From: Ginglymostoma cirratum | Taxonomy: Eukaryota | DNA: 64,000 nt | Assembly (NCBI GenBank): GCA_024137785.1 | Contig: JAHRHZ010000001.1 | Coordinates: 3,947,075-4,011,074 of the forward strand | Reading direction: 5' to 3' | Part shown: in pieces, positions 4,674-59,636 of the stretch | Layout: every line of letters starts with the position of its first letter | How positions within the stretch are numbered: the stretch's first letter is position 1 | Notes under the pieces: model-generated | What the model saw: only the letters and a program-made list of their open reading frames with translations | The model's database searches: none | What the model was told of the DNA's origin: nothing | Position numbers and translations under genes: made by a program

Positions 4674-4971
4674 TTACTCTGCACTGTTAACAGGGGACTG
4701 CTCCCGAGAACCAGACCAGGAACGGGTCGATTTAACAGGAGAATTTGATCGCGACCTCGACTGAGTTGGTTTCCTACGACGCTTGACCTCAGGTGAACGG
4801 CTCAGTGAGCGCGATTCATTCCTCTGTCGCTTGGTATCACGAGCTGGTGACCTGCTCCGGGAGCGAGACCTGCTACGGCTCGGGGAGCGGCTTGCAGATC
4901 TTGAAGCACTTCTAGAACCCTTGTAGCTGCGGGATCTTGAAGAGCTTCTAGAGCGAGATCGTGTCCAAGAC
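4674..4971 (-). CDS. SRSF5: SRSF5-like last coding exon (RS domain)
   Basis: tttcag|[42 protein letters not shown]...[11 protein letters not shown] at 4674-4676. Confidence 0.93.
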
Positions 4972-7900
4972 CTGAAATATCAAAAGAAAGAGGCAGTGTA
5001 AGAAACCATTCCAAGAAAACAAAATCATTATCTGGCAGGTTTATAACAGGAGACTCTGGGTAGGACTTTGCAAGAATTATGGAACTACGGCAAGGTACAA
5101 GCTAGTTTCCCTTTTAGCTTTCACTATTCCCCAGTTTTCAATACATACACTCAAATGCTGATGTTTTTAGGGCAGAATGAACAAAGCCATAGCACCAAAC
5201 ACCATCATGCCTAAATGCATGCAGGCGCCAAGTTGGCTATACTGTTACAATGTTTCAAGCAACTAGCAATGGAGTGACCCAATGGTAGACGATAGTAGCA
5301 AAGGCTCAGCCGGACACAGATTTGTACTTAAGCTTCTTGAAAATACACTAAACAAAAAAAAAAATTCTGTATTCTTAATGCAACAAAGCAGATACAACTG
5401 TTGATCCATCAGTCCCTAAACTTAAACACAGTTAAGAATGCAGAATGCTTTGCCACTTTTTGAAGTAAAGATGACAGTACTGCAGGACAGTGGAATTAGT
5501 TAGATCTGAAGATGCAATGCTTTGAATAGCCTGTACTTCGAGACTTCATTTTTCAAGTTGGCTGTATTAGATTGATGAGCAATGTGCTCTTCAGTCACTG
5601 AAATGTGTCTAGTCTCAATCAGCTGACTCAGCTTGCACATCCGTGCGAGGGATTTCACATTTAGTTTCCCTCTCAAACACCAAAATACCCCTTTTTAAAA
5701 AAACTATCCATTTTAGAAACAAACCCAGCTAAGCTAAATTTACATTTTACCGCACTGTTGATTACCTGTGACGTCTTGGCTCCTCAATCAATTGGACCCT
5801 CCGGCCACTGATTTCTTTTCCATCCAGTTTATCAATTGCGTTTTTCAAATCGCTGTAAGAAGCAAACTCCACAATACTGCAGGATAAAAAAAATCCGAGT
5901 AATACAGTAAGACAGGGTAACAATAAATTTGAAATGTGAAACATTTTTATGCACAATAGTTATGAAATTTAATAGCACTTCAGACCAAAGTTTAAACCGT
6001 TACACAATGGTTTTAATTCAGCTTAAATCCTTTCAACCTTCATTATCTCCCCATAACTCCATGCTTAGGTCTCCAACTTTGATTTCATTCTTCTACTGCA
6101 CTATCGTTACAACCCTACCCACAGTTAGGGGTGGCAAGCCTGAGCATTCTAACATTTCTCTATCCAGTTATCCTCAATATCGGAAGATTCACTTTAGCCC
6201 CATTCTTAGCAGCAGAGTCCAGATGGATAAAATTCCACATTTGCACTGACATCTCCTTCATTATCACCACTGCCTGATGCTGTCAGGCTGCTTGTCTAAC
6301 ATTCAGGCTCTGATAAGCCATAATCTCCTGCAGTTAGGGATTTGGAACTCCAAAGCCCTCATCACTGGACCCTTGCTTATGACTTCATGCTGCCCCCCAG
6401 TTATTTAGGTTGAACCAGCACAAGACCAGAGTCCTATCCAATGGAGGTAAACTTGCAAGTTTATACCTGTTTTATTTCAAGGACAATCCACTCCCAAAAT
6501 GATTTTCTTTTCAGTTCCCTTTCAGACTCAACCTTCCTCACAGGCATGTATAGTGACTGTGATGACTACAAAATTCCCTCTCCAATTTCATCTTCCCTGG
6601 AACTCATCACTCTGACCAAGCATTTGGCAACCACTTTATATCAAAACAGGACCACTGAAGCATTTTTAGAATACACGCTGTTAGTAGAACAGCTTACATT
6701 AAAAGTGCACAGGATGACAGTCCAAAGTGATGATGCCTATTCAGATACTCATGCTGACAAGTTTCAGGTTCTTAATTACAATGGAGAACACACATGCAAG
6801 GTAACTAAAAGATCGCCATTGTTTCCTTACAACTGCTTTTATTGCTGTCTTACCCTTCATTATTATGGACTCTGTGAGCATCAGTGAAGGTCACTTCACC
6901 AGCCTGGCGCATGATGTCCTTCAGATCCTACAAACAGGAAAATCCTTTAAAATGTAATCCAGAACAAAGCCTTACACACTGCACAATCATATCAGTTACA
7001 ACAGTCTCAGAATTGGGATGTCATGCTGTAGGGCTTACTTTGACTAAGTGAATGACAGCAAGTGTGAGCAGTTGCATGTAGTGTTTATCGCTTGCTTATG
7101 GCATACCCAGAGTGCTACCCATCAGTCTAAACAAGTGACACCTGCCTGGTAACAAAACTAAATCTGAAACTTCCTTTAAAGATTGTCCAAAACATGAGGA
7201 AGATTGTGGAAAAAAAATCCAGCACACACAGTATATGCTGCCTAATATCATTACAGCAATCTTTCCAATTTAAAGGATGGGTCTCAAAGCTCAGTAGCGA
7301 GATCAAAATTCAAAAGTAATCTTCATTCAACTGCCAGTTACCAGGATTCTTTTGACTCACGTTCAACCAAGAAAGGAAAATAATTTGGTTGGCGACAGCT
7401 TTAATCACTTACAAAAATTCACCAGCCACAAAGGGAAGCAGTGAAGAATCCCTTTCCCAACTCGTCAATCAATTAGCGATCTACAAAGAAAACTACTGCT
7501 GTGTTTTGTGCACTTTTTCAATATTGCTGCTTTGATCACTAGTAGCATTTTCAAATACCCTTTACTCATTTAAACTCTGTCCGGGTTAGGAAGGGAGTTC
7601 TAAGCACTTTGTTTCCATTTCCTTCATGCTATGTGCTTCAATGGTTTCCTATAGATATTAATACCATCTTTTGCCTCAGTCCATGTAGCCACTAAATCAG
7701 TGAGGCATGCAATGATCATACCAGGGTACCACTGATCCCTGGAAGCATAAAATATTGTAATATTATGTACAATATCATGACATCCCTATTCAATACATTA
7801 AAAAGTTAATACATTTTAAATTAGCGCTGGGTCACCCAAACAATTAGTTTTAGGCAACCATCCATGCCCTATGTGATGCATCTAAGCAATGGGTGCACCC

Positions 7901-59250: not shown

Positions 59251-59548
59251 CTATACTGTATGTTTCTTGTGTTTGCCTGGAAGCAGTGTGCTATGACAAA
59301 ACAATTCAGTGATCAATCCATCAGACATTGAAAATGTGTCAACGAAATGTTTTAACTAATTTAGTTCCTAAATGGTAAAAATGTAATTCATTCGTCATGA
59401 TTTCTCCCCAAGCAATCTAAAGAATTTGCGGCTGCCACATCGAAATTTAATTTAACATTGCCAGTTAGAATGCTAGCTGCCCTGCTTTGTGAAGAGAAGT
59501 GGCATGTATTGACGCGCTTCTGAGACTCAGTTTCTTTCTATTCTGCAG

Positions 59549-59636
59549 CTACTTCAGAGTGGATCCAGTTTTTCAAAGATGCTGGAATTCCAGCCGGACC
59601 AGCTGTCAACTATGCTGTTAGCTTTGTGGACAACAG
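59549..59636 (+). CDS. C19orf47: C19orf47 orthologue, coding exon 2 (gene continues beyond the window)
   Basis: tttctattctgcag|(A)TSEWIQFFKDAGIPAGPAVNYAVSFVDN(R)|gtgggt matches the N-terminal domain of C19orf47. Confidence 0.92.

Follow-up and report, generated by a model that had tools for sequence, protein, structure and literature searches.

Which SRSF5 gene does a shark carry beside CCDC97 and C19orf47, and how did it come to lie there? The question is raised by a window of 64,000 nucleotides of Ginglymostoma cirratum (G000:C1:3947075-4011074, C1 being the window's contig and G000 an assembly of 4.36 Gb), whose minus strand carries at 19465-4674 an intact SRSF5-type gene of seven coding exons, with an open coding sequence of 855 nt for 284 amino acids. 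The initial annotation took this gene for a whole-genome-duplication sister of SRSF5 retained in this lineage. Our analysis supports that view through the four SRSF5-type genes found on another contig (C133), three paralogue pairs shared by C1 and C133, and the age of the split. Judged from its sequence, the gene is a third SRSF5-type lineage beside srsf5a and SRSF5 at the 14q24-type locus, the order of the three being ambiguous in the trees. It is, we consider, probably the SRSF5 ohnologue of the 19q13-type chromosome, and bony vertebrates have likely lost it.

The window gene and its relatives on C133

The coding exons measure 126, 71, 105, 70, 74, 111 and 298 nt, and all six introns have AG/GT ends. 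The protein is laid out as a first RNA-recognition motif (RRM1), a Gly/Arg linker, a pseudo-RRM2 with the motif SWQDLKD, and an arginine/serine (RS) tail of 98 residues with 18 RS dipeptides; Pfam RRM_1 matches it with E 1.8e-32, and its top PDB matches are SRSF1 and SRSF6. By its two RRMs, intact SWQDLKD pseudo-RRM and RS domain it is classed as an SR protein of the SRSF4/5/6 subfamily. Its exon sizes and phases agree with those of the SRSF5-type genes on C133 and differ from those of the genes on C88 and C26, and it groups with SRSF5 and srsf5a in a clade supported by 99/97 in the first and 100/99 in the second of the two trees described below; on these characters we assign it to the SRSF5 type, apart from SRSF4/6. 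Two carpet-shark proteins, both named 'SRSF5-like', agree with it at 284/284 (P0167) and 283/284 (P0002) residues. The first description of the gene as intact and SRSF5-structured is borne out by the open frame, the seven exons and the splicing of the last three introns in RNA, and the divergent residues quoted at that time (24 protein letters) are all present in the window protein.

Other identities were considered and rejected. A pseudogene or retrocopy is ruled out by the open frame, the six introns and the spliced reads (a retrocopy also because all intron positions are kept); an SRSF4/6 identity by the location of the SRSF4/6-type genes on C26 and C88; and an assembly artefact by near-identical proteins recorded in many sharks, rays and chimaera.

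A search of the genome with exon 1 gave nine matches among the 25 candidates scored: the window gene, four on C133, two of SRSF4/6 type (C26, C88) and two that look like SRSF1/9 (C67, C99). The four on C133 (15.255-15.340 Mb; 15255539-15339825) are complete tandem SRSF5-type genes with SRSF5 intron positions; in trees one groups with fish and bird srsf5a and three with mammalian SRSF5. Their flanks hold SLC8A at 14.63 Mb, a SMOC-domain match at 15.09 Mb (weak, with E 3.5e-4, over the cut-off) and an alpha-actinin at 15.37 Mb. Because these flanks match the chicken megabase of SRSF5, SRSF5A, SMOC1 and ACTN1, C133 reads as the 14q24-type segment. In chicken, SRSF5, SRSF5A, SMOC1, SLC10A1, SUSD6 and ACTN1 lie together at 28-29 Mb of chr5 (PMC6678660), with about 430 kb between SRSF5 and SRSF5A (PMC4379411 supplement). 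The window gene stands outside the SMOC1/SLC8A3/ACTN1 segment, which houses the other SRSF5 genes. The initial annotation had proposed to look for a second SRSF5 in the genome, beside SLC10A1, SMOC1 and SUSD6. The four C133 genes supply it, and they rule out a single SRSF5 that had merely been translocated; of the expected neighbours, SMOC1 is represented by the weak domain match, and the SBF family, to which SLC10A1 belongs, gave no match on C133. All four C133 genes are also one N-terminal codon short of the window gene and the bony orthologues, a hint that exon 1 may have undergone gene conversion within the cluster.

Age and origin of the lineage

Two protein searches listed the best 120 of 221 and the best 120 of 1481 matches; among the matches listed, the close relatives come from cartilaginous fishes only, and the best other match is 73% identical over the RRM region. 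The cluster of P0002 has 21 members, at least 15 of them sharks, rays and skates (all of the 15 listed), and the chimaera protein falls in a cluster of its own. Of 305 proteins, 19 contain the five diagnostic motifs; the names of 18 are chondrichthyan, and the other is a near-copy of the chimaera protein. The window clade takes up 17 of the 282 rows of a FastTree tree (276 of the 316 collected proteins, covering both RRMs, and six G000 genes), all chondrichthyan. The initial claim that the gene is absent from humans appears to hold more widely than stated, with no bony-vertebrate member of the clade among the matches listed and the gene present in sharks, rays, skates and chimaera; it would then be absent from all bony vertebrates. 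A long stem (0.20-0.26 changes per column) leads to the clade, within which change has been slight: over the core, the window protein agrees with eight shark and ray proteins (P0002 and seven others) at 152/152 residues, with Heptranchias at 151/152 and with the chimaera at 145/152. Between shark srsf5a and its Heptranchias orthologue, 13 of 151 positions differ. The coding differences listed in a related species' contig (X9) are synonymous in four of four cases.

More careful trees were built on hand-picked subsets from RRM1 and RRM2 with the linker removed: a first of 42 rows and 157 columns, and a second of 44 rows and 152 columns, which lacks five of those rows, has nine new ones and includes deuterostome outgroups. 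The window clade is placed by both, with support of 100/99, within a vertebrate SRSF5-type clade that in the second tree excludes the echinoderm and hemichordate genes (100/99). Shark SRSF5 and bony SRSF5 group together in a clade of their own (84/96 and 84/81 in the two trees). The approximately unbiased (AU) test rejects a single clade of all chondrichthyan SRSF5-type genes (p=0.0012) and also the window gene with shark SRSF5 (p=0.033). Since both chondrichthyan-only forms are rejected, the split is older than the shark/bony divergence, and it is younger than the invertebrate outgroups.

The second line of evidence is synteny. We looked in G000 for ten further families or proteins; as these had been chosen by their human positions, this is a check of expected segments and no blind enrichment. 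Three of the ten lie on both C133 and C1: NumbF (0.97/4.60 Mb), SPAR_C (12.35/4.38 Mb) and actinin (15.37/3.33 Mb, 86% identical). They represent NUMB, SIPA1L and actinin pairs, with putative paralogue identities (e.g. SIPA1L1 versus 3), and on C1, a contig of 6.4 Mb or 0.15% of the assembly, all are within 0.65 Mb of the window gene. The SMOC domain, Tis11B_N and SLC8A are found on C133 and not C1; DPF (4.51 Mb), WDR92 and the TGF-beta propeptide on C1 and not C133; and the SBF family on neither. Taken together, C1 and C133 read as the expected paralogous segments. Of the paralogue pairs that the initial annotation had named, NUMB/NUMBL was recovered on C133/C1, no TGFB1 was seen on C1, and the site of TTC9B holds a TPR-like exon with weak matches only.

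The origin by whole-genome duplication is argued from synteny and age and not from the tree alone, because the protein tree keeps the window gene with bony SRSF5 as an acceptable grouping. A tandem duplication would have come first, giving srsf5a and SRSF5; a whole-genome duplication, probably 2R, would then have copied the segment and left the window copy on the gene-poorer subgenome, the 2R/beta assignment being drawn from gene pairs. The copy would have changed fast early (about 0.2 changes per site on the stem), stayed nearly frozen since, and likely been lost in the bony-vertebrate lineage. Whether it is the ohnologue specifically of SRSF5 proper is a closer call, in which we lean slightly towards yes: the second tree joins the window gene to SRSF5 proper (89/78), a grouping found in 265 of 300 bootstrap trees versus 23 for srsf5a with SRSF5 and 54 for the window gene with bony SRSF5.

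Several points weigh against this origin, beyond the way the families were chosen. Seven of the ten are not common to C1 and C133; no TGFB1 on C1 was seen among 28 propeptide matches, and no SBF-family (SLC10A) match lies on C133. The lack of a bony-vertebrate member is read from protein hits, the best 120 of 221 and of 1481. The trees use just 152-157 columns and hold no lamprey, hagfish or amphioxus sequences, a search with a mussel protein having given no such entry among the best 120 listed. The first tree puts the window clade outside srsf5a and SRSF5 (64/66), and the AU test keeps both srsf5a with SRSF5 (p=0.38) and the window gene with bony SRSF5 (p=0.31; 0.36 with the first set). Lastly, the intron element described below is ancestral, so its absence from srsf5a alone cannot group the window gene with SRSF5.

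Among the alternatives, an ancient single-gene or segmental duplicate, formed on the jawed-vertebrate stem and landed on the 19q13-type chromosome without any whole-genome duplication, fares best, and we hold it unlikely. It would suit a tree that dates the split just to before the shark/bony parting, a family that tends to tandem duplication (four copies on C133), and the fact that the WDR92-like gene, CCDC97 and C19orf47 have no demonstrated paralogue by the C133 cluster, the other WDR92 being on C59; but it leaves to chance three C133-family paralogues so near the gene on so small a contig, including the actinin that flanks the C133 cluster, and its retrocopy form is excluded by the intron positions. 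Less probable still is a reading in which human SRSF5 has its true orthologue in the window gene, the C133 'SRSF5' copies being paralogues (hidden paralogy, or gene conversion in the tandem cluster). The RNP1 motif, K-R-G-F both in the window gene and in bony SRSF5 but K-N-G-F in the C133 copies, speaks for it together with the AU values and bootstrap count just given. In the best trees, however, the shark genes closest to bony SRSF5 are the C133 copies, the C133 copy B1 is nearer mouse SRSF5 (131/151) than is the window gene (117/151), shark and bony SRSF5 form a clade, and bony SRSF5 lies with SMOC1/ACTN1 as the C133 copies do. A duplicate born within early cartilaginous fishes before the chimaera split and then diverging fast would explain the distribution, and the long stem may mislead the tree, but the AU test rejects both forms tried and its place on the paralogous segment would be a coincidence, which makes it highly improbable.

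Unproductive splicing and predicted function

Expression of the window gene is read from raw reads of X21, polyA RNA of four pooled runs (about 24% read, unstranded) mapped on window 2400-10400, so that the last three introns are covered; run X22 gave only 4 reads. In X21 the last four exons are joined by 223, 336 and 281 reads, and transcripts end near 3264. Read depth in the intron at 9611-6928 is 78-91 over the 5' part and 139-159 over the 3' part (one half each), versus about 405 in exon 6 and 1.6-26 in the neighbouring introns. The exon-4 donor is also joined to an acceptor at 8282 (15 reads) and another at 8285 (13 reads), together 28 of the 251 spliced reads of that donor; from either acceptor the frame runs into a stop that ends at 8256, 1402 nt before the next junction. 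Two ray RefSeq isoforms (P0165 and P0168) finish in the same short peptide as these RNAs. No cassette donor was found among the 15 of 49 joints listed, and the alternative acceptor seems to run on into the next exon. The ancient unproductive splicing of SRSF5 is kept in the window gene, as heavy intron retention and as use of two alternative acceptors, with an early stop as the outcome. Since that stop lies 1402 nt upstream of the next junction, the 50-nt rule predicts the early-stop RNAs to be targets of nonsense-mediated decay; their decay would control how much protein is made, through auto- or cross-regulation of the kind known from human SRSF5.

Each of the three C133 SRSF5 copies has sequence in the same intron that aligns to the acceptor region (z 15.3-20.8, scores reached by 0 of 100 shuffles). 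The acceptor region has no match in the intron of shark srsf5a (G000:C133:15327391-15333096; z 1.2), where the conserved element is undetectable, or in five control introns (z -0.9 to 0.8). From fungi to mammals, intron 5 of SRSF5 is spliced unproductively, in a sampling without cartilaginous fishes (Lareau and Brenner 2015, PMC4379411); the supplement gives few alternative-splicing expressed sequence tags for chicken and frog srsf5a. In older annotation frog srsf5a (P0013) has borne the misleading name krt5.1.

By analogy, the protein would be a splicing factor that binds exonic enhancers with RRM1 and the SWQDLKD pseudo-RRM2 and brings in the spliceosome through its RS domain. The pseudo-RRM would bind GGA through its intact SWQDLKD helix and RRM1 would favour cytosine, preferences reported for SRSF1 and SRSF5 (PMC7813835). 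Zebrafish srsf5a/srsf5b double mutants have no developmental defect (PMC5766196), which makes redundancy plausible and leaves the strong conservation in sharks unexplained. We offer tentatively, at somewhat less than even odds, a fuller scenario: the jawed-vertebrate ancestor may have had three SRSF5-type genes, a pre-2R tandem pair of srsf5a and SRSF5 and a 2R sister. The window copy may have undergone a burst of change in both RRMs and then been frozen as a splicing factor specialised for RNA targets of its own, keeping a billion-year-old element that shark srsf5a lost, so that a family of five genes would stand under a shared poison-splicing circuit.

Neighbouring genes and comparison with known systems

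Table 1. Features of the window (positions count from its first letter)
Feature	Position	Strand	Evidence
SRSF5-like coding exon 1 (ATG; RRM1 first half)	19340..19465	-	100% match to P0002 exon
Coding exon 2 (RRM1)	15330..15400	-	AG/GT; matches P0002
Coding exon 3 (RRM1 end, Gly/Arg linker)	12973..13077	-	X1 and X9 contig loose ends at 9683 run into exon 3
Coding exon 4 (pseudo-RRM2 start)	9612..9681	-	splice sites and RNA junctions
Coding exon 5 (RRM2)	6854..6927	-	223 and 336 junction reads
Coding exon 6 (RRM2 end)	5766..5876	-	336 and 281 junction reads
Coding exon 7 (RS domain, 98 aa, 60% R+S; stop)	4674..4971	-	splice sites and RNA reads
3' untranslated region; molecule ends cluster at 3259-3264 and 3325	3264..4673	-	RNA reads
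Regulated intron (position of human SRSF5 intron 5), heavily retained; retention stop ends at 9558	6928..9611	-	RNA depth
Conserved unproductive-splicing element, tandem acceptors 8285/8282, premature stop ending 8256	8130..8358	-	junction reads and homology
CpG-rich region, predicted promoter and predicted non-coding first exon	20900..21500	-	sequence only
CCDC97, 5' neighbour, divergent orientation; first exon predicted by eye	31902..41727	+	PF09747 in two exons
C19orf47, first two exons, read by eye; gene runs past window end	47701..59636	+	downstream DUF5577 exon

The predicted promoter lies in the 2-kb bin richest in CpG in the window (84 in 20001-22000). Just upstream of it, two long open-reading-frame fragments (348 and 356 aa; 21770-23884, minus strand) have by eye the look of a decayed retroelement and no Pfam match. 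The assembly gaps at 10429-10828, 12452-12461 and 40433-40832 (810 N in total) are all intronic and lie beside short interspersed or simple repeats.

Both neighbours named in the initial annotation were recovered. CCDC97 is recognised by two exons that match Pfam CCD97-like_C (E 1.7e-19 and 3.4e-7), and C19orf47 by an exon about 17 kb past the window that matches DUF5577 (E 4e-26), the domain of C19orf47; its 29-aa exon at 59549-59635 has no Pfam match. Directly after C19orf47 follows a TPR-like exon (L093:9460-9999, C1 about 4.04 Mb), presumably TTC9B. On its 3' side the window gene adjoins a second, divergent WDR92/DNAAF10-like gene (G000:C1:3928400-3946100; L052, L051), found via PDB matches, whose exons are 36-80% identical to the copy on C59 (25.45-25.47 Mb); a Pfam scan of 12 candidate reading frames on this side gave nothing useful. 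This neighbour is likely another ohnologue kept in cartilaginous fishes. In the little skate, which has two Wdr92 names, Leri_38C carries the baits for Ccdc97 and Wdr92-1 at a distance of 30 kb, while Leri_9C carries Srsf5-3 (PMC10115646 supplement); skates therefore appear to share the gene arrangement. Two Mb from the window gene, C1 carries a BMP2/4-like gene on the minus strand (L087:4668-5561, about 5.995 Mb; Pfam TGF_beta E 1.6e-35), which by its position is likely bmp16.

No published description of the window gene was found in literature searches, most subscription papers being outside their reach, and SRSF genes are unmentioned in the main text of the catshark paper (PMC11979771). The protein is already in RefSeq under the automatic name 'SRSF5-like'. 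The probable event, differential retention of an ohnologue, is of a known kind, with no new mechanism. With this gene the history of a core splicing regulator's family is corrected, to three old SRSF5 lineages and not one. Fish srsf5a and srsf5b are no teleost-duplication pair, for each of the two lineages is also found in sharks, bichir, coelacanth, lungfish and birds. The family also offers a natural test of poison splicing in SR genes after duplication, retained as it is in the window gene and three SRSF5 copies and undetectable in shark srsf5a; if the shared circuit is real, it is a counter-case to the rule that paralogues replace their unproductive-splicing element.

Among known systems, the closest to the window gene is human and mouse SRSF5 (SRp40; fish srsf5b), which shares its layout of RRM1, pseudo-RRM2 and RS domain and unproductive splicing in the position of human intron 5 (PMC4379411); the seven coding exons and their phases are those of the C133 SRSF5 copies. 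It differs from mouse SRSF5 in a core identity of 77%, a separate clade and another chromosome segment, from SRSF5 in clade-specific residues in both RRMs, and from human SRSF5 in the apparent run-on of the alternative acceptor, with no cassette donor end. The srsf5a/SRSF5A genes of fishes, coelacanth, lungfish, frog, reptiles, birds and sharks (none among the mammalian matches listed) are likewise an SRSF5-type lineage with the exon structure of the window gene; unlike it they lie on the 14q24-type segment near SRSF5 and were kept in bony vertebrates, and the shark intron is without the element match. As an event, the window gene is of the same kind as the chondrichthyan-only ohnologues of Marletaz et al. 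2023 (PMC10115646), who count 68 differentially retained ohnologues, 19 of them chondrichthyan-only, e.g. wnt6b and cspg5. SRSF5 is not named in the accessible part of that paper; the window gene may be among the 68, and it adds a case to the list of ohnologues kept by sharks. A precedent on the same human-19-type segment is bmp16, whose neighbours map to human chromosome 19 (PMC2801517), and its likely counterpart on C1 lies on the same contig as the window gene.

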